The translations under genes were made by a program, and so were the position numbers. The notes beneath the pieces are model-generated. The model made no database searches. It was not told the origin of the DNA and was given only the letters and a program-made list of their open reading frames with translations. 57,779 nt of DNA from a bacterium. Its GTDB lineage: Bacteria; Bacillota_I; Bacilli_A; RF39; UBA660. The DNA lies in assembly GCA_014846175.1 (NCBI GenBank), contig RKAV01000062.1, forward strand, positions 1 to 57,779. The letters run 5' to 3'. Shown here one piece after another: positions 7,145 to 56,472 of this stretch (position 1 is its first letter; every line of letters starts with the position of its first letter).

Positions 7145-8614
7145 GTGAAAGATAAAAAGAAACTAACTATAACATTAGTACTAACCCTAGTATTAGTAAT
7201 AACAATAGTAGGTATTAGTTATGCAGCATTTATTTATACAGGAACAGGTAAAACATTAAATACGATTACAACAGGAGCAATCTCAATGAGTTATGAAGAA
7301 AGTAGTAATGTTATATCTATGGATAAAGCCCTACCAACTACTGATGCCACCGGAAAGAAACAATTAAAAGCAGGAGAATACTTTGACTTTACGGTAGCAG
7401 GAAATATAGTAGGAGGAGAAACTATCAACTGGGAAATAGCAGCAGAAGATGTAACAAATTCTACTAAGAAGATAGATGGAAGTCATATAAAGTTATATTT
7501 AACAAGTATTAATAGTAGTGGGGTAGAAACAAAAGTAATGGCACCAACTACTTATAAAAGTCTAACAAAGGCTAATAATGATACCGGAAGACCAGCTAAT
7601 CAAATGAGTCTAGCAACAGGTACAACAGATACTAGTTTTTCAACTAAATATAGATTAAGAATGTATGTAGATGAAAATTACAATCCCCAAGGAGATGGAG
7701 GAGATTTATCATTTTCAGTAAAAGTAAATGTCTATGGTAAATCAAAAGCATCAAGTGGAGCAGATGTATTAATTGCAAAAGCAAATCCAGAAACACTAGA
7801 TTATGCTACTGCGACAACTAATCAAAAGAATCAAATGTGGACATTCACACACGAAGCAACAGAACAATTAAAGGCAACCACAGATTATAGATATATAGGA
7901 GCAAATCCTAATAACTATGTAAAATTCAATGATGAATTATGGAGAATTATAGGAGTATTTGATGTAGATGATGGAACAGGAAAAATAGAAAAAAGAATGA
8001 AAATTATCAGAAATGAATCAATAGGAAATGTTTTTTGGGATAGTAATAATTCTAATGAATGGAGTACAGCTTCTTTAAAAGCAACACTAAATACAGGAAC
8101 ATTTCATACAGGACTAAATGATACAGCAAAATCAATGATAGAAGGTACAAAGTGGTATTTAGGAGGTACTGGAGATTTTACTAGTTCATCAAATGGATTA
8201 GCCTCACATTTTTATAGTTATGAAAGAGGAACAACAGTATATAGTGGAAGAAGTACAAATTGGACAGGAAAAGTAGGATTAATGTACCCAAGTGACTATG
8301 GATACGCGACAAGTGGAGGGAACCGCATAAATAGAGCAAGCTGTATGGCAAAAGAATTATTCCATTGGAATGATAGTAGCTATAGTGATTGTAAAAATAA
8401 TGACTGGCTTTATAATTCATCACCACATCAATGGACAATGAGCCCGAGTGGCGATTATTCTGATCATGTTTTCTATGTCTATGATTCTGGCTATGTCAAC
8501 ATTACTTATGCTGGGGGTGCTGCTTATGCGGCTCGGCCAGTCGTACATCTAAAATCCACAATTAAGGTGATATCAGGATCAGGAACTGCTTCTTCTCCAT
8601 TCATTCTGGGATAA
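7145..8614 (+). CDS. secreted or cell-surface protein of unknown function (489 aa, N-terminal signal anchor)
   Basis: GTG start. KKKLTITLVLTLVLVITIVGISYAAF is a hydrophobic N-terminus. The Thr/Ser/Asn/Gly-rich mature part ends ...ARPVVHLKS... Confidence 0.5.
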   Translation: MKDKKKLTITLVLTLVLVITIVGISYAAFIYTGTGKTLNTITTGAISMSYEESSNVISMDKALPTTDATGKKQLKAGEYFDFTVAGNIVGGETINWEIAAEDVTNSTKKIDGSHIKLYLTSINSSGVETKVMAPTTYKSLTKANNDTGRPANQMSLATGTTDTSFSTKYRLRMYVDENYNPQGDGGDLSFSVKVNVYGKSKASSGADVLIAKANPETLDYATATTNQKNQMWTFTHEATEQLKATTDYRYIGANPNNYVKFNDELWRIIGVFDVDDGTGKIEKRMKIIRNESIGNVFWDSNNSNEWSTASLKATLNTGTFHTGLNDTAKSMIEGTKWYLGGTGDFTSSSNGLASHFYSYERGTTVYSGRSTNWTGKVGLMYPSDYGYATSGGNRINRASCMAKELFHWNDSSYSDCKNNDWLYNSSPHQWTMSPSGDYSDHVFYVYDSGYVNITYAGGAAYAARPVVHLKSTIKVISGSGTASSPFILG

Positions 8615-27107: not shown

Positions 27108-27184
27108 TGGTGACCAGTACGGAATTCGAATCCGTGAATGCTGCCGTGAAAGGGCAGTGTGTTAAGCCACTTCACCAACTGGCC
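27108..27184 (-). tRNA. tRNA-Glu (anticodon TTC)
   Basis: Reverse complement GGCCAGTTGGTGAAG...CCCTTTCACGG...GGATTCGAATTCCGTACTGGTCACCA. Confidence 0.9.
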
Positions 27185-27192
27185 AAAAAAAA

Positions 27193-27269
27193 TGGCGCCT
27201 CAACTAGGACTTGAACCTAGGACCCCTTGATTAACAGTCAAGTGCTCTAACCAACTGAGCTATTGAGGC
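27193..27269 (-). tRNA. tRNA-Asn (anticodon GTT)
   Basis: Reverse complement GCCTCAATAGCTCAGTTGGTTAGAGC...GACTGTTAATC...GGTTCAAGTCCTAGTTGAGGCGCCA. Confidence 0.9.
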
Positions 27270-27276
27270 ATCCTAA

Positions 27277-27353
27277 TGGTGGGCCTGACAGGACTTGAAC
27301 CTGTGACCTCTCGCTTATCAAGCGAGCGCTCTAACCAACTGAGCTACAAGCCC
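27277..27353 (-). tRNA. tRNA-Ile (anticodon GAT)
   Basis: Reverse complement GGGCTTGTAGCTCAGTTGGTTAGAGC...GCTTGATAAGC...GGTTCAAGTCCTGTCAGGCCCACCA. Confidence 0.9.
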
Positions 27354-34226: not shown

Positions 34227-34303
34227 GGGCGATTAGCTCAGTTGGTTAGAGCACCTGCCTTACAAGCAGGGGGTCATAGGTTCGAGTCCTATATCGCCCA
34301 CCA
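34227..34303 (+). tRNA. tRNA-Val (anticodon TAC)
   Basis: GGGCGATTAGCTCAGTTGG...CCTTACAAG...GGTTCGAGTCCTATATCGCCCACCA. Confidence 0.9.
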
Positions 34304-34310
34304 TTAAGAT

Positions 34311-34386
34311 GCCGAAATAGCTCAATAGGTAGAGCAACTGATTTGTAATCAGTAGGTTCCGGGTTCGATTCCTGGTTTCGGCACCA
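34311..34386 (+). tRNA. tRNA-Thr (anticodon TGT)
   Basis: GCCGAAATAGCTCAATAGG...GATTTGTAATC...GGTTCGATTCCTGGTTTCGGCACCA. Confidence 0.9.
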
Positions 34387-34403
34387 TTTTATTGTTTATA
34401 GTC

Positions 34404-34487
34404 GGAGAGGTAGCGAAGTGGCTAAACGCGACAGACTGTAAATCTGTTCCTTCGGGTTCGATGGTTCGAATCCATCTCTCTCCACCA
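34404..34487 (+). tRNA. tRNA-Tyr (anticodon GTA)
   Basis: GGAGAGGTAGCGAAGTGG...GACTGTAAATC..., long variable arm, ...GGTTCGAATCCATCTCTCTCCACCA. Confidence 0.9.
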
Positions 34488-34497
34488 TCTTAGTTAT

Positions 34498-34572
34498 TGC
34501 CTCGTAGCCAAGTGGTAAGGCATCAGACTTTGACTCTGACATGCGTTAGTTCGAATCTAACCGAGGCAACCA
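34498..34572 (+). tRNA. tRNA-Gln (anticodon TTG)
   Basis: TGCCTCGTAGCCAAGTGG...GACTTTGACTC...GTTCGAATCTAACCGAGGCAACCA. Confidence 0.9.
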
Positions 34573-34586
34573 TTTTTTAAATATTT

Positions 34587-34662
34587 GATCCGCTAGCTCA
34601 GTCGGTAGAGCATTTGACTTTTAATCAAAGGGTCATGAGTTCGAATCTCATGCGGGTCACCA
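34587..34662 (+). tRNA. tRNA-Lys (anticodon TTT)
   Basis: GATCCGCTAGCTCAGTCGG...GACTTTTAATC...GTTCGAATCTCATGCGGGTCACCA. Confidence 0.9.
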
Positions 34663-34668
34663 TGATGT

Positions 34669-34757
34669 GCCTGAGTGGCGGAATTGGTAGACGCACAGGA
34701 CTTAAAATCCTGCGAAGGTCATACTTCGTGCCGGTTCAAGTCCGGCCTTAGGCACCA
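34669..34757 (+). tRNA. tRNA-Leu (anticodon TAA)
   Basis: GCCTGAGTGGCGGAATTGG...GGACTTAAAATCC..., long variable arm, ...GGTTCAAGTCCGGCCTTAGGCACCA. Confidence 0.9.
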
Positions 34758-34764
34758 TTTATTT

Positions 34765-34857
34765 GGAGGAATACCCAAGTCTGGTTGAAGGGACCGGTCT
34801 TGAAAACCGGGAGGTCGTGCAAACGGCGCAGGGGTTCGAATCCCTTTTCCTCCGCCA
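34765..34857 (+). tRNA. tRNA-Ser (anticodon TGA)
   Basis: GGAGGAATACCCAAGTCTGG...GGTCTTGAAAACC..., long variable arm, ...GGTTCGAATCCCTTTTCCTCCGCCA. Confidence 0.9.
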
Positions 34858-34878
34858 CTTAAATTTATATATTGATAT

Positions 34879-34954
34879 CGCGGGATGGAGCAGTTGGTAG
34901 CTCGTTGGGCTCATAACCCAGAGGCCGGAGGTTCGAGTCCTCCTCCCGCAACCA
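34879..34954 (+). tRNA. initiator tRNA-fMet (anticodon CAT)
   Basis: CGCGGGATGGAGCAG...GGGCTCATAACCC...GGTTCGAGTCCTCCTCCCGCAACCA. The C1-A72 mismatch and three G-C pairs closing the anticodon stem mark an initiator. Confidence 0.85.
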
Positions 34955-34958
34955 TAAT

Positions 34959-35035
34959 GGTTCCGTGGTGCAGCTGGTTAACACGTCTGCCTGTCACGCA
35001 GAAGATCGCGGGTTCGAGCCCCGTCGGAACCGCCA
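34959..35035 (+). tRNA. tRNA-Asp (anticodon GTC)
   Basis: GGTTCCGTGGTGCAGCTGG...GCCTGTCACGC...GGTTCGAGCCCCGTCGGAACCGCCA. Confidence 0.9.
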
Positions 35036-35041
35036 TTATTT

Positions 35042-35117
35042 GGTTTCATAGCTCAGTCGGTAGAGCAAAGGACTGAAAATCCTTGTGTCGGTGGTTCGAT
35101 TCCACCTGGAACCACCA
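35042..35117 (+). tRNA. tRNA-Phe (anticodon GAA)
   Basis: GGTTTCATAGCTCAGTCGG...GGACTGAAAATCC...GGTTCGATTCCACCTGGAACCACCA. Confidence 0.9.
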
Positions 35118-36638: not shown

Positions 36639-38639
36639 GTGGTAGATGTGGCATTAAAAGATGTTAGAGGTATAGGGCCAAGGTCTTTAGTCCTTTTAAA
36701 TAAAATGGGTATTCAAACAGTAGATGATTTAGTAACCCATTATCCATTTCGTTATGATATTTTGAAAAGAGGATCACTTACTGATACAGTTGATGGTGAT
36801 CATATTATTATAGATGGAAGAATAGAAAGTAGTCCTATTCTTGTAAGATTCAAAGCAGGTCTTAATAAAATGAACTTTAGATTAGTTACATCATCTGGTG
36901 TGGTTGGTATTTCAATATTTAATAGAGCATTTCTAAAGAGTCATTTAGTAGTAGGAACTGGTGTTACAGTAATAGGTAAATTTGATAAGAGAAAGAATGT
37001 TATTACAGCATCAGATATAAAGTTAGAAACGTTATCTGCTAAGATTAAGATAGAACCAGTTTATCATTTAACTAATGGAATTACTAATAAGAATATTTCT
37101 ACTTATATAAATATGGCTTTATTAGGTAATTATAAAGAAATAGTAGATTTTATTCCTTTAGAGTATCAAGAAAAATATAATTTTGTTAATAAAAGAACAG
37201 CGTTAAATATAGTACATAATCCACCTTCTCTTGAAAAGTTAGAAGAAGCAAAGAATAGACTTAAATATGAAGAATTATTTTCTTTTATGTTTAAGATTAA
37301 CTATTTAAAAATGGAGAATAAGAATAAAAATTCTGGTATAAAAAAGGAAATAGATACTAAGAAAATAGATGAGTTTATTAAAACACTTCCTTTTGAACTT
37401 ACAACTGATCAGGAAAAAGCAGTTTCTGATATTGTAAAGGACCTAGCTAGTGAAGGTAAGATGAATAGATTATTACAAGGTGATGTTGGTAGTGGAAAAA
37501 CAATAGTTTCTTTCCTTGCTATATATGCAAATTTTTTAGCAGGATATCAGAGTGCTTTAATGGCTCCTACAGAGATTCTTGCTATGCAACATTATAATAA
37601 TATGAAGGATATTTTTAAAGATATTAATATAAATATTGCTTTATTGACTAGATCAACTAATAAGAAAGAAAAAGACAAGATTTTAACAAGTCTTGCTAAT
37701 AATGAGATAGATGTAATTGTTGGAACTCATTCTTTAATTCAGGAAGAGGTTAAATATAGTAATTTAGGATTAGTTATTACTGATGAACAGCATAGATTTG
37801 GGGTTAATCAACGAGCTAATTTAGAAAATAAGGGTAAGAAACCAGATACTTTATATATGAGTGCTACTCCAATACCTAGAACTTATGCTTTAACAATCTT
37901 TGGTGATATGGATGTATCTACTATTAAAACAAGACCAAAGGGTAGGAAGAAGATACATACGGTAGTAAAAAAAGAAACTGAAATGAAAGATGTTTTGACG
38001 ATGATGTATGAAGAATTAAAACAAGATCATCAGATATATGTAATTGCACCATTAATAGAAGAAAGTGAAAATAGTGATTTAGCTAATGTTAATGAACTTA
38101 AAGATAAGTTAACAGTTGCTTTTGGTAGTAAATATAAGATAGGATTAATTCACGGAAAGATGGCTACAGTGGCTAAAGATAAAATAATGAATGATTTCCT
38201 TCTTAATAAGTGTCAGATTTTAATTAGTACTACAGTTATTGAAGTAGGGGTAGATGTTCCTAATGCTACTATGATGGCTATTTTTGATGCTAATAGATTT
38301 GGACTTTCAACACTTCATCAGTTAAGAGGAAGAGTAGGAAGAAATGATTTACAGTCACATTGTGTTTTAATAAGTAATCAGGATACGGAAAGACTTCATA
38401 TTATGGAGAAGACCACTGATGGGTTTGAAATAAGTGAAGAAGACTTTAAACTAAGAGGACATGGTGATTTATTTGGTACTAAACAAAGTGGTGATATGTC
38501 CTTTAAAATAGCTAATATAAAGAATGATTATTCTATCCTTTTAAGAGCTAGAGAAGATTCTTATCAATACCTCCTAAAGAAGACGGAAGAAGAAAAACAA
38601 TTAAAGATGAAAATTATTGAATCAATTATACATAGTTAA
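36639..38639 (+). CDS. recG: ATP-dependent DNA helicase RecG
   Basis: Wedge domain N-terminus, helicase motif I GDVGSGKT, DEQHRFG (motif II), TATPIPRT-like SATPIPRT, QLRGRVGR motif VI. Confidence 0.9.
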   Translation: MVDVALKDVRGIGPRSLVLLNKMGIQTVDDLVTHYPFRYDILKRGSLTDTVDGDHIIIDGRIESSPILVRFKAGLNKMNFRLVTSSGVVGISIFNRAFLKSHLVVGTGVTVIGKFDKRKNVITASDIKLETLSAKIKIEPVYHLTNGITNKNISTYINMALLGNYKEIVDFIPLEYQEKYNFVNKRTALNIVHNPPSLEKLEEAKNRLKYEELFSFMFKINYLKMENKNKNSGIKKEIDTKKIDEFIKTLPFELTTDQEKAVSDIVKDLASEGKMNRLLQGDVGSGKTIVSFLAIYANFLAGYQSALMAPTEILAMQHYNNMKDIFKDININIALLTRSTNKKEKDKILTSLANNEIDVIVGTHSLIQEEVKYSNLGLVITDEQHRFGVNQRANLENKGKKPDTLYMSATPIPRTYALTIFGDMDVSTIKTRPKGRKKIHTVVKKETEMKDVLTMMYEELKQDHQIYVIAPLIEESENSDLANVNELKDKLTVAFGSKYKIGLIHGKMATVAKDKIMNDFLLNKCQILISTTVIEVGVDVPNATMMAIFDANRFGLSTLHQLRGRVGRNDLQSHCVLISNQDTERLHIMEKTTDGFEISEEDFKLRGHGDLFGTKQSGDMSFKIANIKNDYSILLRAREDSYQYLLKKTEEEKQLKMKIIESIIHS

Positions 38640-38706: not shown

Positions 38707-38820
38707 ACATGATAGGTAGCTTTTACTATTTATCATGAGGTATAATCTACTGCTTTTTATGTAGATATACTTACCGAAACCCCCTGAAGTTCCCTCGAAA
38801 GAGGGAACGCTTTTTGTTTT
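38707..38820 (+). ncRNA. candidate small RNA or leader transcript (unknown family) whose 3' end is the IME integration site
   Basis: Sits between the promoter above and the GNRA-loop terminator TTCCCTC-GAAA-GAGGGAA plus T-run (38790-38820). Internal hairpins CATGATA...TATCATG and ATCTAC...GTAGAT. No ORF with an SD. Confidence 0.35.
38780..38789 (+). repeat. putative att core copy 1 (CCCCCTGAAG)
   Basis: An identical 10-mer recurs at 50167-50176, each time immediately followed by a GAAA-loop terminator hairpin and T-run, about 130 bp (copy 1) or about 95 bp (copy 2) from the 3' end of an integrase gene. Confidence 0.55.
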
Positions 38821-38851
38821 ATAAGGCTTTCTGAGGTTTTTAATTTTTTCT

Positions 38852-43957: not shown

Positions 43958-45373
43958 ATGCGAATAGGAATAGATATAGATAATGTTCTATCTAATTTTA
44001 ATGATGTATTATTAAACGAATATAAGAAACATGATAATGCAATAAATGGCAAAGGTATAGTTCATCAAGATTTATATATTAGAAATATGTTTAATTGGGA
44101 TAAAGAATATGAAAAAAATTTTTACAAAGAAAATATTGAGTATTTTGCAAGCCTATTTGAACCGATTGAAGAATGTTCTAAATATGTAAAATTATTAAAA
44201 GAAGAAGGAAATACAATTTATATCATTAGTGGTCGAGATAATGGTGAATATTCTAACCCATATAAAATGACCATTGATTGGTTAAAAAAATATGATATTG
44301 TTTATGATAAATTATTTTTGGTAGATGCTTATAATAGTCATTCAAAAACAGAAATATGTATAGAATACAATATTGATGTAATGATAGATGATTCTAAAAG
44401 AATGTGTAAGGACATAAAGGATAATGGTATTAGAGCATTACTTATGGATACACCATATAATAGAGATACAAATGAATTTGAAAGAGTTAATTCATGGAAA
44501 GAAATTTATAACAAATTATCTAATAAAAAAATTAATGTGATACTTGATACAGATACTTATAATGAATGTGATGACCAATTTGCATTAGCCTATTTAATTA
44601 AGTCACAAGATATGTTTAATATTGAGGCAATTACAGTAGCACCATATTCTCATACAAAAAGAGATGTAAAAGTAATAGATGGACAAGAGTTGAGTTATAA
44701 TGAAATTTTAAAAATATGTAATTGGTTAAATTTTGATACCATTGATAAAGTATTTAAAGGATCAATGGACTATATTCAAAATGGATATGATGAAAATAAT
44801 GATGCAGTAAATAAAATAATTGAAGTGGCGCTTAAAAACGATAAAACCTATATATTAGGAATTGGAGCTATAACTAATATTGCTTTAGCTATAAAAAAAG
44901 AACCTAAGATAATTGATAGAATAGAAATCATTTGGTTAGGTGGAAATGAAATAGAATATAAAGATAATTTAGAATATAATTTCAAACAAGATATAGAGGC
45001 TGTAAAAATAGTGTTTGATTCTACAGTGAAAATGACTATACTACCTTGCAAAAATGTAGTATCAGATTTAAGAATAGATATAGCTGAATTAAAAAGTAAA
45101 TTAGATAATAGGAAAGAATTAAATAAATATTTAATTGAGAGATTTTATAATGATGGATATCATGGAATACAAGAAACAAGAGTAATATGGGATATATCAG
45201 TAATAGCATATATGATAAATAAAAATTGGTTTGAAACAGAAAAAATTAGTTGTCCCAATATCAAGGAAGATAGTTCTTATGAATTAACTGATAATAGACA
45301 TAGTATAACTTTTGTAACTAAATTAGATAGAGATAGAATATATGAAGATTTATTTAGAAAGTTAGGAGTATGA
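43958..45373 (+). CDS. fusion protein: NT5C-type 5'(3')-deoxyribonucleotidase (HAD) N-terminal domain plus inosine-uridine-type nucleoside hydrolase-like C-terminal domain
   Basis: N-terminus MRIGIDIDNVLSN (HAD motif I DxDxV), IISGR, MIDD. From aa ~192, NVILDTDTYNECDDQFALAYL resembles the IUNH DxDxxxDD Ca-binding motif with two extra residues. Later GIGAITNIALA. Confidence 0.65.
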   Translation: MRIGIDIDNVLSNFNDVLLNEYKKHDNAINGKGIVHQDLYIRNMFNWDKEYEKNFYKENIEYFASLFEPIEECSKYVKLLKEEGNTIYIISGRDNGEYSNPYKMTIDWLKKYDIVYDKLFLVDAYNSHSKTEICIEYNIDVMIDDSKRMCKDIKDNGIRALLMDTPYNRDTNEFERVNSWKEIYNKLSNKKINVILDTDTYNECDDQFALAYLIKSQDMFNIEAITVAPYSHTKRDVKVIDGQELSYNEILKICNWLNFDTIDKVFKGSMDYIQNGYDENNDAVNKIIEVALKNDKTYILGIGAITNIALAIKKEPKIIDRIEIIWLGGNEIEYKDNLEYNFKQDIEAVKIVFDSTVKMTILPCKNVVSDLRIDIAELKSKLDNRKELNKYLIERFYNDGYHGIQETRVIWDISVIAYMINKNWFETEKISCPNIKEDSSYELTDNRHSITFVTKLDRDRIYEDLFRKLGV

Positions 45374-45376
45374 ATT

Positions 45377-45985
45377 ATGAAATTAACAAGCGATGAAGCA
45401 TTAAAACTAATTGAAAAAGAAAGAAATGAAACATCAAATGAACGATGGATAAATCATTCTATTTGTGTTGGTAATGCTGCAGGTAAAATAGCAGAAGCAT
45501 TAAATTTGAATATAGATTATGCAAAAACCTTAGGATATATTCATGATATTGGCAAAAAATTTAAGTATGATGAAAAAGGTGTATTTCCACATGCAATGAA
45601 TGGATATAAATATATTAAATCATTAGGATATGACGAGGATTATGCAGGAATTTGTATTAAACATTCATTTTTAAATAATGATATAGATTGTATTTCAAAC
45701 GATCGTGATGAAACAGATAAAAGTAATGAAAATTATGATTTTGTAAAACAGTATATAAGTAAAGAATATTCCATATATGAAAAAATTATAAATCTTTGCG
45801 ATTTAATGTGTACTACAAAAGTTTTAACAGTGGATAAAAGAATGATAGATTTGTTATATAGACATGGTGTCTATGCTAAAACACATTATCATATAGAAGA
45901 AACTATTAAATTGAAGGAATATTTTGATAATTTATTAGGATACAATTTATATGATTTGTTTTCTGAGATAAAAGAAAATTTGTAG
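45377..45985 (+). CDS. HD-domain phosphohydrolase (202 aa)
   Basis: INHSICVGNAAGKIAE...LGYIHDIGK carries the H...HD metal-binding signature. Similar in size to the YfbR-type 5'-deoxynucleotidases. Confidence 0.6.
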   Translation: MKLTSDEALKLIEKERNETSNERWINHSICVGNAAGKIAEALNLNIDYAKTLGYIHDIGKKFKYDEKGVFPHAMNGYKYIKSLGYDEDYAGICIKHSFLNNDIDCISNDRDETDKSNENYDFVKQYISKEYSIYEKIINLCDLMCTTKVLTVDKRMIDLLYRHGVYAKTHYHIEETIKLKEYFDNLLGYNLYDLFSEIKENL

Positions 45986-45993
45986 GTGATGTT

Positions 45994-46593
45994 ATGCGAA
46001 TAGGAATAGATATAGATGGCGTATTAACCGACATAGAACAATGGCAGTTAGATTATGGAAGTAAGTTTTATTTTGAAAAATATAATAAACAAATATTAGA
46101 TAATGAAGGCTATGAAACAACTGATATATTTAAAGTTGATAGTAAATTAGATGATGAGTTTTGGACTGAATATTTCAAAGATTATTCGATAAATGTTGAT
46201 GTTAGAAAATTGGCTAGCGAGGTAATTAAAAAACTAAAACAGGATGATAATGAAATTTATATTATTACCGCAAGAGGTAGTTTTTTATCACATTCTGCAA
46301 ATGTAATGCTTTTTGAAGAAAATAAAAATATTGTTTTAGAGTGGCTTAGAAAAAATGAAATTGAGTATGACAAAATAATATTTAGTCCAGAAGATAAACT
46401 TAGTATATGTATAGAAAATAATATTGATGTAATGATAGAAGATAAAGTTGATAACATAAATAAAATATCATCTAGAATTCCAGTTATATGTTTTCATGCA
46501 GGATATAACAAAAATTGTATTGGTGATAATATTATTAGATGTTATAGTTGGTATGACATATATAGTAAAATAAATAAAATGGTTCAAAAATGA
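45994..46593 (+). CDS. NT5C-type 5'(3')-deoxyribonucleotidase-like HAD protein
   Basis: MRIGIDIDGVLTD (DxDxV), IITAR, MIEDK. Paralogous to the N-terminal domain of the 471-aa protein. Confidence 0.6.
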   Translation: MRIGIDIDGVLTDIEQWQLDYGSKFYFEKYNKQILDNEGYETTDIFKVDSKLDDEFWTEYFKDYSINVDVRKLASEVIKKLKQDDNEIYIITARGSFLSHSANVMLFEENKNIVLEWLRKNEIEYDKIIFSPEDKLSICIENNIDVMIEDKVDNINKISSRIPVICFHAGYNKNCIGDNIIRCYSWYDIYSKINKMVQK

Positions 46594-47807
46594 AAAGATT
46601 ACTAAGAATTAGTTTTGATTTATCATTATTATCATTTATACCAATAATATCTTGGTTTTTACTTGGAATAATAGTTGATAAGAATTTAATTAATATATTT
46701 ACACTAACTTATCCGTTACAATTTATATATTATATAATTAAATCTATATTTTCTACTGGAGCTAATATAAGTAAAGAAAAAGATAAAAACGAAAATGCAG
46801 TAATGTCAGGTTTAGTATTAGGAACAATTGTTTCTATAATTATTTTTACTATAATTCTATTAAATGTGGATAATTATATTAGTTTTATGAATATGGATAT
46901 AAGTACATATAAAAACTTTACTATATATTCAATATTACAACTATTCATTTGTTTAGAATTTGCGATGATGCAAGATAAACTATATTATGAAGAAAAAAAT
47001 AAATTAGCAAATAAGTATTCTTTAGTATTTAATTTGTTAAATTTTATATTATTGATTGGAACATCTTTAATAACAAAAAATCAAATTATTATAATTGCAA
47101 CAACATTGATTCCATTAGCGATATATACTTTGTATATTTATATTAAAAATAGTAATAATTTTAAATTTAATATTAATGTATTAAAATGTATAAAATACGA
47201 TTCAGTTGAATTGTTCAATAATATTGCATTCTTTTTAATATTCTTGTTTGGATTATCTAATGCCTTAGAATATGGAGAAATGTATGCAACTGCTTTAACT
47301 TTTATAGCATTAATAACAGATACACAGTGGGATACTTTTGTTGCTATAAAAGAGGCAGCAACAATAGATATTAGTAAAAGAAAATTTAATTATATAGAAC
47401 ATAGAAATAATGCTTACAAATTATTAGGAATATTATTTGGGACAAGCTTAATTATGTTTGTATTATTATATGGATTTTATGATTTAGATTTTAAAATTAC
47501 AATGCTATATTTTTCATTTGAAATAGTTAATTTTTTAATTTATCCAATATATAGAATTAAAACTTGTTATTTACAATTGGAATATTCAGCTTTTAAAATT
47601 ACATCAAATAAGATAATAGCATCAATACTTAGAATGTTTATTTCGTTATTAAAAACACCATTTTGTACAGGAATAGGACAAGTGTGTTCATCAGTTTATC
47701 AATTTATAACAGTTAGTATAATGTTTGGTCATAATTTTAAAATTGATAAAACAGGTTGTGTTGTTAAAAAGAAATCAATATTGAATAATGACACTATGAC
47801 ATTATAA
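46590..47807 (+). CDS. polytopic membrane protein (about 12 TM, MOP/MATE-flippase-like topology; function unknown)
   Basis: ATGA start-stop overlap with the preceding gene. I count about twelve hydrophobic segments in the translation. Confidence 0.5.
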   Translation: MKRLLRISFDLSLLSFIPIISWFLLGIIVDKNLINIFTLTYPLQFIYYIIKSIFSTGANISKEKDKNENAVMSGLVLGTIVSIIIFTIILLNVDNYISFMNMDISTYKNFTIYSILQLFICLEFAMMQDKLYYEEKNKLANKYSLVFNLLNFILLIGTSLITKNQIIIIATTLIPLAIYTLYIYIKNSNNFKFNINVLKCIKYDSVELFNNIAFFLIFLFGLSNALEYGEMYATALTFIALITDTQWDTFVAIKEAATIDISKRKFNYIEHRNNAYKLLGILFGTSLIMFVLLYGFYDLDFKITMLYFSFEIVNFLIYPIYRIKTCYLQLEYSAFKITSNKIIASILRMFISLLKTPFCTGIGQVCSSVYQFITVSIMFGHNFKIDKTGCVVKKKSILNNDTMTL

Positions 47808-47966
47808 ATGTGAGTAGGATACTAACAAACAATGTGTCATGTATCATTTAATAATAAAAATAATGAAATATGTGATATAATAGTATATATAAAAAGAAGC
47901 GCTAGTACAGGCTTATGATTATAAGTTTTTGTATTGGCGTTTTTTTCGTAGTAAGGAAGTGATAAA

Positions 47967-50024
47967 ATGAATTTAAATTTAGAAAATGGATATACTGTTA
48001 CTTTACCTTCAAAAGGAAAGCATAATATATATTATGGACCAAATAAAATAGGTAAAACTCAGATATCTCGTTCGATGAAAAAATATTATGAAGAAATAAG
48101 TGAAAAAGTTCTTTTGTTTAATGAAAATATTTTAAGTGATATGATTATTCAAAGTAGTGAAGATATTAATTCTTTTGAAGTAATGCCTATGGCACAAGAG
48201 TATAATAAATACTATAATAATATGCAAAAAAGTAAAGAAAAATTATCAATGAAAAATAGTTTAAAGGATTTATGCTTAGTTAATACAAAAAAGGCATTTC
48301 AAGGGTTTGAAAAAATAAGTGAGTATATTAATGATGATAATACTTATTCTTATAATGGTGATGCTTTATCACCAGTTTATAGTCAAGATGATATCAAGGA
48401 TATGTATAAGCCAAAAAAGGTAAATATGAATATTTTTGAAATAATTGATAATCTGAAAAAGGATAATATCAAAATAATACCAGATAATGTTAAGAAAATT
48501 GTTGAGTATGATATATATAACATTCAATTGAAAATAAATCAAGACCCAGATAAATACAAGAATTGTCCTGTTTGTTTTTCACCTATTTGTCAAGAGAATT
48601 TAGATAATATAAGGGAAAGCATTGAAAATGGTTCAATCGAAAAAGAATTGCAATTATCAATATTATTCTATTTAGATAATAAAAGTGATATTTTAAGAAA
48701 TAAAATGTCTGAGATATTATTATGTGAATCATATGAATCCTTTGAAAAAGATTTTAAGTTAGATGTTGAAAAATCTATTATTTCTTATTTAAGTAATCAG
48801 TATGATAAAAAGGATGTTATAAATTATAAAGAAAATAAAACAAAAGTTGAAGAAATATTAAATAAAACAAAGGATTTTAAAATAAATGAAAATGTTGAAT
48901 TAAGTAATTATATAAAAAATAAATTAAAGAATCATACGGTTTATAAAAATACAGATATAGAAATAAAAATTAGTGATGGAAAGTTAAAAGTTTTAAATAG
49001 TCAAGTTGAATATGATAAAATGTCTAAATCGGAACAAAATTATTTCAAATTTCTTTATTTTGATATTTTAGTTCATCAAAAGATTTTAGAAGGGAATTTG
49101 CATATAATTATTGATGATCCATTTGATAGTTATGATGATATTTATGTCCAAGATTCAATAGCAATAATAACAAAATTAATAAATGAACATATTGAAGATA
49201 TTGATACAATTGATATTTTTTCTCACAGTATGTATATTCTTGATTTATATGATTCATTGAAAAAAATATATAATAAATTTAATATTTACTGGATGGATCA
49301 AATTGGTTTAACAAAAGAAATAAATATATTTGAAGATGGCTATCTTTTGTTTGAAAAAATAGATATAAATCCTTACGATTATGGAATTATATTGAAGATT
49401 AGCGATAAAATGGTTGATAAATATTCATTGATTGTATTTGCTGCACTTTTAAGAAATGAAATAAATGTAGAGCGTTTGTTATTTAAAAATAATAGCAATG
49501 GTGAACTTTCTGATGTGAAAAATAAAGTAGAAGAACTATATAATAAAATATCAGAATCAATCGATCATGTGAGGGAGGAAATATCAATAATTGAATTAAA
49601 TAACATTATTAATGAAATATTTTATTTTGGCTTAAACGATAACGAAATACAGAATGTGTCATCTTTATTTGATGATATTTCAAAAGATTATGTTGATATA
49701 GATATAAAAGCAAAAACTGGTTCTGGAAATGTTGTATCGGTTCCTAAAAATGATATTTGTTATATATTAATTTATAAAATATTATTTGGTTTGAAAATTA
49801 GAAGATTATTAGAAAAGAAGGTTTATGATATTGTACAAGAAGACTACACTGAAGTGTGGGATTTAATTGAAAAAATACCAAATACTCCATTGTATGATTA
49901 TTATAATTTATATAAATACATAATTAATTCGTTTAATCATTCTTCATCAAGAGTTGTTCCACCAATTTTTGTGTATAGTTTCAAATCATTACGAGAAATG
50001 TATGAAGAATTACAAGCATTGTAG
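47967..50024 (+). CDS. AAA_13 / PrrC-RloC-like ABC-type ATPase with unknown C-terminal domain (685 aa)
   Basis: Walker A-like YYGPNKIGKTQ, central coiled region with CPVCFSPIC, signature-like MSKSEQNYF, Walker B IIIDDPFDSYDD (compare the DDPxSSLD of this family). About 270 aa of C-terminal sequence carries no motif I recognise. Confidence 0.55.
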   Translation: MNLNLENGYTVTLPSKGKHNIYYGPNKIGKTQISRSMKKYYEEISEKVLLFNENILSDMIIQSSEDINSFEVMPMAQEYNKYYNNMQKSKEKLSMKNSLKDLCLVNTKKAFQGFEKISEYINDDNTYSYNGDALSPVYSQDDIKDMYKPKKVNMNIFEIIDNLKKDNIKIIPDNVKKIVEYDIYNIQLKINQDPDKYKNCPVCFSPICQENLDNIRESIENGSIEKELQLSILFYLDNKSDILRNKMSEILLCESYESFEKDFKLDVEKSIISYLSNQYDKKDVINYKENKTKVEEILNKTKDFKINENVELSNYIKNKLKNHTVYKNTDIEIKISDGKLKVLNSQVEYDKMSKSEQNYFKFLYFDILVHQKILEGNLHIIIDDPFDSYDDIYVQDSIAIITKLINEHIEDIDTIDIFSHSMYILDLYDSLKKIYNKFNIYWMDQIGLTKEINIFEDGYLLFEKIDINPYDYGIILKISDKMVDKYSLIVFAALLRNEINVERLLFKNNSNGELSDVKNKVEELYNKISESIDHVREEISIIELNNIINEIFYFGLNDNEIQNVSSLFDDISKDYVDIDIKAKTGSGNVVSVPKNDICYILIYKILFGLKIRRLLEKKVYDIVQEDYTEVWDLIEKIPNTPLYDYYNLYKYIINSFNHSSSRVVPPIFVYSFKSLREMYEELQAL

Positions 50025-50166: not shown

Positions 50167-50176
50167 CCCCCTGAAG
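50167..50176 (+). repeat. putative att core copy 2 (CCCCCTGAAG)
   Basis: Identical to 38780-38789. Confidence 0.55.
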
Positions 50177-50208
50177 AGGAATCGAAAGATTCCTCATTTT
50201 TGTTTTTT
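50177..50208 (+). terminator. GAAA-loop terminator hairpin following core copy 2
   Basis: AGGAATC-GAAA-GATTCCT then CATTTTTGTTTTTT. Same architecture as 38790-38820 but a different stem sequence. Confidence 0.6.
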
Positions 50209-53119: not shown

Positions 53120-54027
53120 TTAATTACTAGTTCTAGACTTTGTTATATGAAGGCCTTCTTTTTCTAATAAATCAATATTTAAATTTAATGATCTTCCAAA
53201 ACGTAGAGCAGTTGTTTTTAACTTAGCATCATGAATAATACTTGTAGAAGTAAATTCAAAATCTTTTTTATATGATGCATACTTAATAAAAAGAATTAAG
53301 TTTTCATCAATTTCATCATCTTCAATTGAATTACTTATTTTAAAAGTTTGATTTTTATTTCTTTTTAAATCTATATCAAAACCTTCAAAATCTCTATTAA
53401 TTACTTTCATAGTTAAATGATTATGGTCATTTCTATTCTCAAACAAAGTAATTTTACCATCTATACAAGCATCAAAAGCTGTACTACCTAATGTTTCATT
53501 CCTTTTATTTAAGTGATGAGTAAATAGAATAGTGATATTGTATTTCTCGCATAATTCTCTTAACTTAGGCATTAACTTTTGAGCTACATCTTGAAAATCA
53601 TTAATATCATAAGAGATACCTAAATCCATATCTTTAAGCATATCTATTATTACAAATTTATTAGTAGTTTTATCACCAGCAAAATCAGCAATTTCATATT
53701 CATGGTCAAATATACTTATAGTAGATTTTCCATCTCTCTATCCATGATAAATAATGAGCTTTCCTTTGGAGTTAATTGTAATGTTTTGTATCTGTCTTGT
53801 AATTGACCAAAATCAGACTCTGTGCTAATATATAATACAGGTGAAAGAGTTACTTTGTGTCCTAGAAATGGTAATCCATTTGTAAGGCAGTAGGAAAGTT
53901 GCAGTGCCAACATAGACTTTCCTACTTTAGGTTTTGATACAAGTAAATATACACCTTTAGACCTCATTAGTCCTTCGACAATGATGTCTTTTTTTTCACT
54001 TGTATCTATCTCTTCAATTAGTTTCAT
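53120..54027 (-). pseudogene. RecA-like AAA ATPase of IME-2, split by a frameshift
   Basis: ORF 53716..54027 carries the Walker A (SKPKVGKS). ORF 53120..53641 carries FTHHLNK and the C-terminus. The C-terminal frame stays open upstream to about 53745 (GKSTISIFDHEYEIADF...KFVIIDMLKDM), so a single frame change near 53745-53760 explains the split. Confidence 0.7.
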
Positions 54028-54974: not shown

Positions 54975-55772
54975 ATGATTTTAGTGAATAATGAAAAGTT
55001 AAATAATTTAAACTCTATTTCTGTAAATGATTTATATATTTTGACTGATTTTGATGGAACAATTACTAAGGATAATAGTGATAGTTCTTGGGCAAGTATT
55101 TTTAAAAATCCTAAAGTTACAAAAGAATTTATTGATGAATGTATAAGAATATTTAGTCATTATCATAAATTTGAAATTGATGAGTCATTATCAATTGAAG
55201 AAAAAATGCCAATCATGAGTGAATGGTATAGAAAAAATATAGAAACATTAATTAATTTTGGTATTACAGAAGAAATTATAAACTATGCTGCTAATAACGA
55301 AAGTATTATGGCTTTTCGAGATGGAGCAATTGATTTTTTAAAGACAATGTATGAAAAAAATATTCCTATTATAGTAATATCAGCAGGTGTTGGTAATATT
55401 ATTGAACAATTTTTAATTAGAAATAATTGCAATTATTCAAATATTTATATTTGTTCTAATTTCTTGGAATATGAAAAAGGCATAGTTAAAGGAGTTAGAG
55501 ATAATAATTTAACTCATCCATTAAATAAAAATGAAGTATTTTTACCATCAAATATTAAAAGTAAAATTATAGGCAGAAATAATATTTTACTTCTTGGCAA
55601 TAGTGTTTTAGATATAAATATGGCAGGTACTAATAGAAATGTTTATAAATTGGGTTTTTTAGATGAAAAAATAGAAGAAAGATTAGAATCTTTTAAAGAA
55701 AACTACGATATAGTTTGTACAGATAATACTTCTTATGATGAAATACGAAGTAAAATAAAAATTCTAAATTAG
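54975..55772 (+). CDS. HAD-superfamily nucleotidase, pyrimidine 5'-nucleotidase (UMPH-1)-like (tentative)
   Basis: LTDFDGTITKD (DxDxT motif I), cap-like insertion, VISAGVGN and GNSVLD motifs. Confidence 0.5.
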   Translation: MILVNNEKLNNLNSISVNDLYILTDFDGTITKDNSDSSWASIFKNPKVTKEFIDECIRIFSHYHKFEIDESLSIEEKMPIMSEWYRKNIETLINFGITEEIINYAANNESIMAFRDGAIDFLKTMYEKNIPIIVISAGVGNIIEQFLIRNNCNYSNIYICSNFLEYEKGIVKGVRDNNLTHPLNKNEVFLPSNIKSKIIGRNNILLLGNSVLDINMAGTNRNVYKLGFLDEKIEERLESFKENYDIVCTDNTSYDEIRSKIKILN

Positions 55773-55786
55773 GTCGTGGTGATATA

Positions 55787-56472
55787 ATGAAAAAAGAGTC
55801 CTTTGATAAATTATTAAAGATTATGTCTAAATGTGATAAATGCACTAATTTTAAGTGTAAAGAGAAGTCATTGATAAATATTTATAATGATTATAACTTT
55901 AGTTCAAATATACCATCTATATGGACTGATTGGTTTAATAGACTAGATTCCAAGATTATGATTATAGGTCAAGACTGGGGACCTTATAATGATATGAAAA
56001 AACTAAATAATTTGTTAAAAGAAGATAAAAGTAATTGGAATGAATTAATTGAGTCATAAAAAAGTAATACAAAAAAATATTAGAAAAATATATAAAAGAA
56101 TCTTCTAACAGTAGGTATTCGTTAAATGATATATTTATAACAAATGCAATAATGTGTGCAAGACAGGGAGATAATTATAGAGGAAATAATATTGATTTAA
56201 AAAAATCTACTCTAAAATGTAGTGATTTCTTATTAAAACAAATCGAGATAGTAAAGCCAAAAGTAATATTAACTTTAGGATATTATCCATTATTATCTTT
56301 ATCTAACTTATTAAATTTTGATATAGAAAGAACACTAAAGGAAACTATTAGAAAATATCCTGAAATAAATAAAGATGATTATGTTATTATTCCTTTATAT
56401 CACCCAGTAGCACAAATTAAAAAGGCTGAACAGTTAGTGCAATATAAAAAAATATGGAATTATATTGACTAA
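55787..56472 (+). pseudogene. uracil-DNA-glycosylase-superfamily gene, disrupted
   Basis: IMIIGQDWGP (motif A-like) lies in ORF 55787..56059. FITNAIMCAR and LYHPVA (motif B-like) lie in the second frame, which is open from 56068. A TAA at 56057 plus a frame change in or near the A7 run at 56071-56077 separate the halves. Confidence 0.55.

Follow-up and report, generated by a model that had tools for sequence, protein, structure and literature searches.

The window analysed here (57,779 nucleotides (nt), positions 1 to 57,779 of contig RKAV01000062.1, assembly GCA_014846175.1, from a bacterium of the RF39/UBA660 lineage of Bacillota_I) contains two tandem integrative mobilizable elements (IMEs) downstream of recG (36639-38639), and the last gene of the first of them, IME-1, encodes an ATPase of 685 amino acids (aa). 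We give an even chance to the reading in which this gene encodes an RloC-type ATPase-nuclease, fused in one polypeptide, that the IME carries at its far end as defence cargo and that is predicted to act by abortive infection. The parts of this reading differ in strength: the N-terminal two thirds of the protein are almost certainly an AAA_13/RloC-type ABC ATPase, a role of the gene in defence is probable, and the assignment of the C-terminal domain as a divergent RloC-type RNase effector, which rests on sequence comparison, is at best evenly balanced. RloC is the wobble-nucleotide-excising anticodon nuclease ('restriction-linked ORF') of Geobacillus kaustophilus and Campylobacter and belongs to Pfam AAA_13, and PrrC is the E. 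coli anticodon nuclease embedded in the EcoprrI type I restriction-modification (R-M) locus; together they represent the classic ABC ATPase gating a suicidal tRNA nuclease. The features of the gene are the following:

47967-50024, plus strand: ATPase open reading frame (ORF), ATG start, 685 aa plus stop codon, no internal stop
47967-49337, plus strand: ABC/Rad50-type ATPase module, residues 1-457 (motifs, hhalign, AlphaFold2, Foldseek)
48036-48059, plus strand: Walker A, G24-P-N26-K-I-G29-K30-T31 (G24, N26, G29, K30 and T31 invariant in 23 sequences)
48564-48575, plus strand: C200-P201-V-C203, zinc-hook-like CxxC knuckle within the helical insert (invariant Cys)
49020-49037, plus strand: signature-like M-S353-K-S355-E356-Q (S353, S355 and E356 invariant in 23)
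49104-49139, plus strand: Walker B/D-loop, I380-I-I-D383-D384-P-F-D387-S388-Y-D390 (D383-D384-P-F-D-S-Y-D390 invariant in 23)
49221-49226, plus strand: H-loop linchpin S419-H420 (invariant)
49338-50021, plus strand: C-terminal domain, residues 458-685, mostly alpha-helical with one small beta-hairpin, predicted effector (AlphaFold2)
49452-49568, plus strand: first Arg...His pair, R496 (49452-49454) and H534 (49566-49568), on two consecutive long helices
49800-49814, plus strand: R612-R-L-L-E616, candidate Arg-X3-Glu of an RloC/PrrC-type triad (conservation, hhalign)
49926-49940, plus strand: N654-S-F-N-H658, candidate catalytic His, 41 residues past E616 (conservation, hhalign)

The ORF and all the protein motifs quoted in the initial annotation of this DNA are present in the sequence, and the motifs are invariant in our family alignment (23 sequences, 26-81% identity, on which motif invariance was judged); the H-loop, absent from the earlier list, can be added to them. 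In the full-length AlphaFold2 model (mean predicted local distance difference test score (pLDDT) 88.4, predicted template modelling score (pTM) 0.76), the ATPase fold runs to about residue 457, with a helix at 423-434 and strands at 439-445 and 451-456. The best Foldseek matches in the PDB are Rad50 heads (E 4e-4), followed by SMC3, Lamassu LmuB, the retron Eco8 ATPase and nucleotide-binding domains of ABC transporters. Among the distant matches of the family profile, 32 of 44 correspond to Pfam AAA_13 (best E 6e-179), many of them also matching SMC_N and AAA_21, and in PADLOC these same distant proteins match PDC-S06, PrrC, LmuB and AriA. Alignment by hhalign of the family profile (A1) with 15 canonical AAA_13 proteins extends over 551 columns (probability 98.5%, E 2.3e-15) and places the Walker A, CxxC, signature, Walker B and H-loop each in register with its canonical counterpart: YGPNKIGKTQISR pairs with FGANGTGKTTISR, NCPVCFSPI with RCPFCQGYL, MSKSEQNYFKFLYF with LSEGERNLLTFLYF, IIIDDPFDSYD with VIDDPISSMD, and IFSHS with VLTHN, the last followed by a NP motif. 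The window protein does not reach the gathering threshold of Pfam AAA_13 (PF13166, 36 bits), with no AAA_13 match even at E <= 1; the nearest outgroup protein, P0068, scores 43.4 bits. The AAA_13/RloC-like chassis proposed in the initial annotation is nevertheless right, because profile retrieval, the motif register in hhalign and the Rad50/SMC fold match all bear it out, though formal Pfam membership fails; the motifs, whose failure to align with the AAA_13/ABC family would have spoken against the proposal, do align.

A helical insert (about residues 76-330) separates the two ATPase lobes and carries the zinc-hook-like CPVC that had been pointed out earlier. C200, P201 and C203 are invariant in the family, both cysteines are also present in 8/8 outgroup proteins, and the element aligns in hhalign to the CPFC of canonical AAA_13 proteins. 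Its similarity to the Rad50 zinc-hook structure 1l8d is weak (E 0.57), and two relatives, P0098 and P0112, show sub-threshold matches to Pfam Rad50_zn_hook (22.8 and 18.8 bits against a cutoff of 24.3). The 'long coiled middle' of the initial annotation is not what AlphaFold2 predicts: the insert is modelled as many short helices, the longest of about 21 residues, with the CPxC on a small knuckle and no long coiled-coil arms. Since each chain has only two Cys, a putative Zn site would need two chains, by analogy with Rad50, for which such a hook is described, and with RloC, for which it has been proposed (PMC2610378, PMC3458546).

Because the ATPase fold continues to about residue 457, the C-terminal domain comprises about 228 aa (458-685) and not the 270 or so first estimated. 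Modelled alone by AlphaFold2 with 28 aligned sequences (pLDDT 88.4, pTM 0.87), it presents long helices at 485-507, 512-533, 597-623, 641-655 and 672-684 and a variable alpha/beta insert at about 540-596. Its conservation was counted over 36 sequences, comprising the family and the nearest outgroup proteins: H658 and P666 are kept in 36/36, F656 in 35/36 and N654 in 34/36, position 612 is R or K in 36/36, and position 616 is E or D in 33/36 and Q in 3/36. S659 and P665-P666 come after H658. The residues best kept in the domain, R/K612, E/D616, N654, H658, R496 and H534, are polar. The first pair is conserved nearly as well (R496 in 35/36, H534 in 34/36), and two outgroup proteins, P0068 and P0072, read R-x3-E-x37-S-H at this place.

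The nuclease motif of RloC and PrrC was defined by Davidov and Kaufmann as Arg-X3-Glu-X36-52-His, often with a Ser before the His, and the residues R320/E324/H356 of PrrC and R692/E696/H737 of Geobacillus RloC are essential for nuclease activity and toxicity (PMC2610378). In the window protein, R612-x3-E616-x41-H658 fits this triad, as a pattern match only. The canonical AAA_13 proteins of our comparison set carry the triad as MRRILE...(37)...N-x-G-S-H, and the best local hhalign alignment between the family tail and RloC-like C-termini puts IRRLLE on MRRILE and NSFNHS on NAGSH (P 0.004-0.017). The profile score of this comparison, 20.5, was reached by 0/150 column shuffles (null 10.5 +/- 2.0). 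We prefer a diverged RloC effector because the triad spacing fits and the alignment on the RloC motifs stands above the shuffles; as far as sequence goes, a diverged copy of the RloC/PrrC effector would be more economical than a new effector and seems more likely. The initial annotation had recognized no motif in this region and had suggested that it may be a new effector: the region is indeed without a database match, but the R-x3-E-x41-H pattern does fit the known triad.

The same region is the source of most of the points that weigh against an RloC-type nuclease. The C-terminal alignment with RloC is short (HH probability 3-8%), and when the profile is widened to all proteins with the tail module the score falls to 13.1, which was reached by 12/150 shuffles. 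This tail module, formed by the last 95 or so residues, is common to other AAA_13-like ATPases that Pfam leaves unannotated, which hhalign assigns to a group B (99.1%, E 4e-19) and a group C (79%, E 1.6e-5); RloC C-termini have no significant hhalign similarity to either group. Glu616 is replaced by Gln in the three most distant family members, the R496/H534 pair (38 residues apart) lacks an equivalent in RloC, the residue preceding His658 is not the Ser usual in RloC (a Ser follows the His instead), and a hydrophobic residue (I653) occupies the position of the canonical HEPN Arg of Rx4-6H. Foldseek searches with the C-terminal domain revealed no significant HEPN or nuclease fold in the PDB (best E 1.3) or in BFVD (best E 0.55), and the full protein has no relevant match in Pfam (E <= 1), PADLOC or NCBIfam. 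Finally, two distant homologues lie in polysaccharide-synthesis loci and not in defence islands.

Concerning the HEPN motif, the C-domain consensus is [ILMF]-N-x-F-x-H, and the deviation from HEPN is common to RloC-like proteins (xN-x-G-S-H). HEPN proteins are also found among the best target-normalised TM-scores (TMt) of the Foldseek searches, at non-significant levels (7ae6_B, E 4.1, TMt 0.39; the phage HEPN A0A8S5QFF3, E 3.8, TMt 0.37), as is RNase L among the matches (7dsy, E 2.6, non-significant). The Foldseek check called for by the initial annotation thus gave no significant match. None of the C-domain sequences, each compared with Pfam, has a significant match; one of the 28 shows a weak similarity to ABC-3C CTD6 (E 0.0025). 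Between them, this comparison and a search of PDB sequences with the C-domain profile gave matches at chance level only: SNAP29, ATG17, GIPC, the ABC-3C CTD6 one and two to RnlA_DBD at 0.009. With the full protein, a phmmer search of PDB sequences gave nothing usable, and weak sub-threshold matches to DUF1623 and Csm6_6H were set aside. The segments LYNKISESIDH and LYKYIINSFNH of the C-terminal domain look alike; an internal duplication (473-545 against 592-685) is not significant (P 0.11).

Somewhat unlikely, the alternative that survives best retains the ATPase as a Rad50/SMC-like sensor of foreign DNA and makes the C-terminal domain something other than an RNase, either an effector with a new chemistry (DNase, nucleotide-directed or protein-directed) or a sensor/adaptor acting via host factors or R-M in trans. 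It would account for the lack of significant HEPN or nuclease matches in Pfam, the PDB and BFVD, for a C-terminal region about 90 residues longer than that of RloC-like proteins, for the additional R496/H534 pair and the variable insert, and for a tail module that marks a wider clade (groups B and C) without similarity to RloC C-termini. However, the best-conserved residues of the domain are precisely R-x3-E...N-x3-H with RloC-like spacing, and its sole above-chance alignment is with the RloC catalytic motifs; moreover, the occurrence of the gene as a stand-alone unit in many contexts argues for a built-in effector. We consider unlikely a bolder version in which residues 458-685 would be an undescribed effector, with R496/H534 and R612/H658 forming an intramolecular pseudo-dimeric catalytic site like the paired HEPN domains of Cas13, the tail module defining a wider unannotated clade (groups B and C) of Rad50-like single-gene immunity proteins, and the promoter and hairpin of the leader (see below) acting as a switch that releases expression on infection.

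The probable role in defence is suggested by the genomic neighbourhoods of the homologues, surveyed in eight different contexts (the window and homologue loci). Homologues that are not carried by IMEs (33-65% identity) are located in defence islands, beside R-M systems of types I, II and IV. One follows recG and precedes a KAP NTPase gene and hsdMSR, a type I R-M system (L006); another begins 16 nt after a SMEK-nSTAND3 gene and is followed by hsdM, hsdS and hsdR (L020); a third lies between nSTAND3 and Fic genes, with an EcoRI-type methylase and GmrSD (L007); a fourth is beside Dcm and a MwoI-like gene (L008); and a fifth starts 12 nt after a Dcm gene and adjoins a MutH-like gene and a TIR gene (L025). 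Such R-M and defence contexts, including linkage to Fic/Doc, have been described for RloC-like ABC-HEPN proteins (PMC3710099). No neighbour gene is conserved across the eight contexts, so that 'stand-alone', as the gene had been called, is apt and the ATPase protein is self-contained. A small-ORF antitoxin adjoining the gene was also considered and rejected, as only unconserved ORFs of 20-43 aa are present. In two independent contigs (L007, 5720-7984; L020, 7711-9984) the SMEK_N-nSTAND3 gene ends 16 nt before the homologue; the two genes may be co-transcribed, and such a two-gene arrangement could be peculiar to this subclade (52% identity to the window protein).

The position of the gene within IME-1 is defined by two copies of a junction repeat:

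38780-38830, plus strand: left junction repeat of IME-1, in the recG terminator region
50167-50205, plus strand: right junction repeat of IME-1, with CCCCCTGAAG, a GAAA-loop hairpin (50176-50195) and a T-run

The two copies, at 38780 and 50167, are 11,387 bp apart, giving IME-1 a size of 11.4 kb. Each of the two IMEs encodes a tyrosine integrase, a Mob_Pre relaxase, an AAA_25 ATPase and an Xre-type helix-turn-helix (HTH) protein. The right repeat, found as a terminator-like site, starts 143 nt past the ATPase stop codon, and its hairpin doubles as the terminator of the ATPase gene. The recurrence of the repeat at this point makes the ATPase gene the last of IME-1, in agreement with its earlier placement at the distal end of the element. 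The repeat brackets an IME-1-type element in L001 and in L011 (the latter without IME-2) and follows the ATPase gene in L014, L015 and L017, and metagenome contigs diverge at 50176-50178. L006 has a single, unoccupied copy after recG. That the gene directly follows recG in L006 hinted that the ATPase could belong to the chromosomal flank; this is ruled out by the repeat after the gene in the window and in L001, L011, L014, L015 and L017. The copies of L001 are at positions 25, 10198 and 16301, and that of L006 is at 7542. The repeat consists of CCCCCTGAAG, the GAAA-loop hairpin and then TTTTTGTTT, and its stem differs from copy to copy but always pairs (GTTCCCTC/GAGGGAAC, GAGGAATC/GATTCCTC, GGAGCC/GGCTCC). 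The presence of a hairpin in the junction repeat indicates that the integration site of the IME overlaps the recG terminator. In L001, the third copy delimits a further island with a two-component system and ABC/FtsX genes.

Four loci (L001-L004) share the IME backbone with other middle cargo and still have the ATPase in the last slot; the NT5C-IUNH, HD, NT5C and membrane-protein genes of the window are replaced there by a transglutaminase-like gene, NUDIX and GT28 (L001, 5294-7815). This arrangement is what would be expected if the protein served the IME itself, in exclusion, maintenance or addiction, for instance by attacking rival plasmids or IMEs or by killing cells that lose the element, as IMEs with the same backbone always hold the gene last before attR and the cargo between the HTH gene and the ATPase varies (window versus L001). 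We regard such a role as improbable: homologues with 49-65% identity lie in chromosomal R-M/defence islands without the IME backbone (L006, L007, L008, L020 and L025), and the homologues share no antitoxin-like partner gene. A housekeeping DNA-repair ATPase of the Rad50/SbcC/RecN type, to which Rad50 heads as best structural matches and the CxxC hook-like motif could point, is already disfavoured and barely credible, given the lack of a Mre11/SbcD-like partner in any of the eight contexts, an insert without long coiled-coil arms, the extra C-terminal domain, the extremely sparse and patchy distribution, the carriage on a mobile element and a GC content below that of the flanks.

The ATPase family is very rare. 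A word-indexed search of 5.8 billion proteins gave 54 clusters at 90% identity, and an exhaustive HMMER profile search of 1.84 billion representatives at 50% identity (E <= 1e-3) gave 73 matches, 26 of them at E <= 1e-10. Homologues were found only in metagenome-assembled genomes of low-GC 'Bacilli/Tenericutes' from the gut and in metagenomes of gut and wastewater (samples from wastewater, pigs and chickens), and tblastn of the gene against phage and plasmid collections detected no match. When the C-domain and tail profiles were used in two more word-indexed protein searches, nothing but fragments of the ATPase family itself came back. The cargo half of IME-1 that includes the ATPase gene (44000-50000) has the lowest GC of the window (0.22-0.24 versus 0.25-0.33 elsewhere).

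The ATPase gene is preceded by a leader with three elements:

47873-47881, plus strand: extended -10 TGATATAAT, candidate promoter of the ATPase cassette (exact match; without a -35 match)
47893-47946, plus strand: leader stem-loop ending in U7 (T7 run 47940-47946), intrinsic-terminator-like, between the -10 box and the Shine-Dalgarno sequence (SD)
47953-47959, plus strand: SD AAGGAAG, 7 nt 5' of the ATG (AGGA invariant in six aligned homologous leaders)

The extended -10 is exactly where the initial annotation had placed it. The motif TGNTATAAT shows no enrichment over the whole window (14 sites for 11.3 expected), but 8/14 sites are located 20-95 nt upstream of the starts of plus-strand ORFs, which makes it plausibly a real promoter type here; the sites include 14378, 21658, 27518, 33788, 35223, 36613, 47873 and 54378. 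Pairs of sigma-70-like hexamers around the gene are at chance level (28 found, 29.7 expected), and promoters of the extended -10 kind, with no -35 box, seem to be usual in this organism. The hairpin has a minimum free energy of -23.8 kcal/mol (z = -5.0), equalled by 0/200 shuffles, and an Rfam search of the leader and gene produced no match. Since the stretch between the end of the hairpin (47946) and the start codon (47967) leaves no room for a promoter, all transcripts of the gene must pass the hairpin and its U7.

Upstream of the homologues in L001 and L006, the -10 box is kept as TGTGATATAAT / TATGTTATAAT, together with the basal stem, the U-run and the SD; the upstream neighbour in L006 differs (recG plus 570 nt), and the apical stem shows a compensatory change from CUUAU/AUAAG to CAUUU/AAAUG. 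A homologue with 49% identity (L008) has an unrelated stable hairpin and U-run at the same place, and the leaders of L017 and L020 are without a hairpin. The -10/hairpin/U-run leader accompanies the gene behind three different upstream neighbours, and this, with the compensatory stem changes, identifies the leader, as judged from these alignments, as part of the ATPase gene's own cassette. Of the two roles first proposed for the hairpin, an attenuator or simply the terminator of the upstream operon, the second is too narrow, because the hairpin travels with the gene, although it can serve as that terminator too. Most simply, the leader would be a leaky terminator that limits a toxic product and keeps the gene insulated from the cargo operon upstream; regulated attenuation is another possibility.

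The activity, trigger and target of the window protein are inferred by analogy with RloC and PrrC, and under the RloC-type reading the system could operate as follows. Two protomers would pair through ATP-dependent head engagement and perhaps through a Zn shared between their two CPxC knuckles. In the uninfected cell, the ATPase module would keep the C-terminal domain inactive, and the promoter-proximal terminator hairpin would keep the basal level of the potentially toxic protein low; low expression has been predicted for rloC genes too (PMC2610378). An invasion signal, for which DNA ends, DNA damage or the loss of restriction activity are candidates, would alter the state of the ATPase or hook and release the C-terminal domain. 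The latter would then act as a metal-independent RNase via Arg612/Glu616/His658, with tRNA anticodon loops as the likeliest target, so that translation would stop and the infection would be aborted.

Among known systems, RloC has a layout close to that of the window protein. Both are single polypeptides of similar size (658-897 aa in RloC, 685 aa here) with the same order of ABC motifs, a CxxC insert between Walker A and the signature, and a C-terminal helical region with Arg-X3-Glu-X~40-His; RloC genes are likewise usually stand-alone, often near R-M genes or on mobile islands, and the 98.5% hhalign probability given above corresponds to full-length profile-profile homology. In contrast to RloC, the window protein falls below every curated AAA_13, RloC and PrrC model, its insert is shorter and modelled as short helices, its C-terminal region is about 90 residues longer and includes the additional R496/H534 pair, its His lies in the context NxFNH-S instead of NxGS-H, the RloC end motif GHYxMM is absent, and the homology of the C-terminal domain is weakly supported. 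With PrrC it shares the fusion of an ABC ATPase to a C-terminal R/E/H nuclease domain, putative in the window protein, and the logic of abortive infection, and two homologues are directly upstream of hsdMSR (L006 and L020), though outside it. However, PrrC lacks a CxxC/hook insert, its gene is located between hsd genes and the R-M enzyme keeps it silent, whereas the window gene has the insert and is carried by an IME without a nearby R-M gene; the PADLOC models of PrrC and RloC fail to match the window protein.

PDC-S06, a single-gene AAA_13-type phage-defence candidate of PADLOC that is merely listed as such in the papers naming it, belongs to the same architecture class; distant relatives of the family match it at up to E 2.9e-261 and the nearest outgroup protein P0068 at 3.5e-10, whereas the window protein has no PDC-S06 match at E < 1. 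Rad50/SbcC, Lamassu LmuB, the retron Eco8 ATPase and PARIS AriA have in common with the window protein the ATPase head fold and an ABC sensor coupled to an effector, and Rad50 also the CxxC hook-like element. In these Rad50/SMC-like systems the partners are separate (Mre11/SbcD, LmuA/LmuC, AriB, reverse transcriptase), whereas the putative effector of the window protein is fused to the ATPase, without long coiled-coil arms. The conserved partner genes of Lamassu and ABC-3C systems (LmuA/LmuC, or a middle component and an effector) were not found around the window gene or its homologues. The Rx4-6H motif of the HEPN superfamily is absent from the window protein, the Arg position being hydrophobic.

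The other cargo genes of IME-1 (43958-47807) encode an NT5C-nucleoside hydrolase fusion, an HD phosphohydrolase, a second NT5C and a multi-pass membrane protein of 405 aa without a Pfam match, and those of IME-2 (54975-56472) a UMPH-1 pyrimidine 5'-nucleotidase and a fragment of uracil-DNA glycosylase (UDG). PADLOC detected no defence system among the IME cargo genes, with a weak Cas3-HD similarity of the HD protein only. A dCMP-deaminase-like gene and a UDG gene are directly upstream of a distant homologue of the ATPase (L023, 28-3611). This nucleotide-catabolism cargo might correspond to a nucleotide-depletion or modified-base defence, or to nucleoside-analogue resistance. The UDG fragment, ORF 56152-56472 (plus strand, 106 aa), aligns with no more than the C-terminal half of the profile of the UDG superfamily (positions 69-139 of 141) and is apparently a truncated gene of the uracil-DNA glycosylase-like type. 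In IME-2 the AAA_25 gene is split and reads as two ORFs, 53120-53641 and 53716-54027 (minus strand, 173 + 103 aa), for a counterpart of 316 aa in IME-1; the split is probably a frameshift or pseudogene, and IME-2 may be defective. An array of 11 tRNA genes (34227-35117, plus strand) precedes recG and the IME insertion site at a short distance; three more tRNA genes are clustered at 27108-27353 (minus strand).

The window protein is a strongly diverged relative of the known anti-phage RloC/PrrC type and no new kind of protein. Its family keeps the RloC/PrrC architecture but escapes Pfam, NCBIfam, PADLOC and PDB-based annotation, so that tools such as PADLOC would not call it defence. The tail module common to other unannotated Rad50-like ATPases suggests that, in low-GC gut Bacilli, some of the ABC-ATPase-plus-nuclease defence repertoire is being missed at present. 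If the triad assignment is true, the family would offer a compact, partner-free system in which to study the control of an RNase by a zinc-hook ATPase, and the window an example of a small mobilizable element that keeps defence cargo, low-expression leader included, at a constant position; if it is wrong, the C-terminal domain would be a new effector. Either way, the finding agrees with what is currently understood of defence islands and poses no challenge to it.

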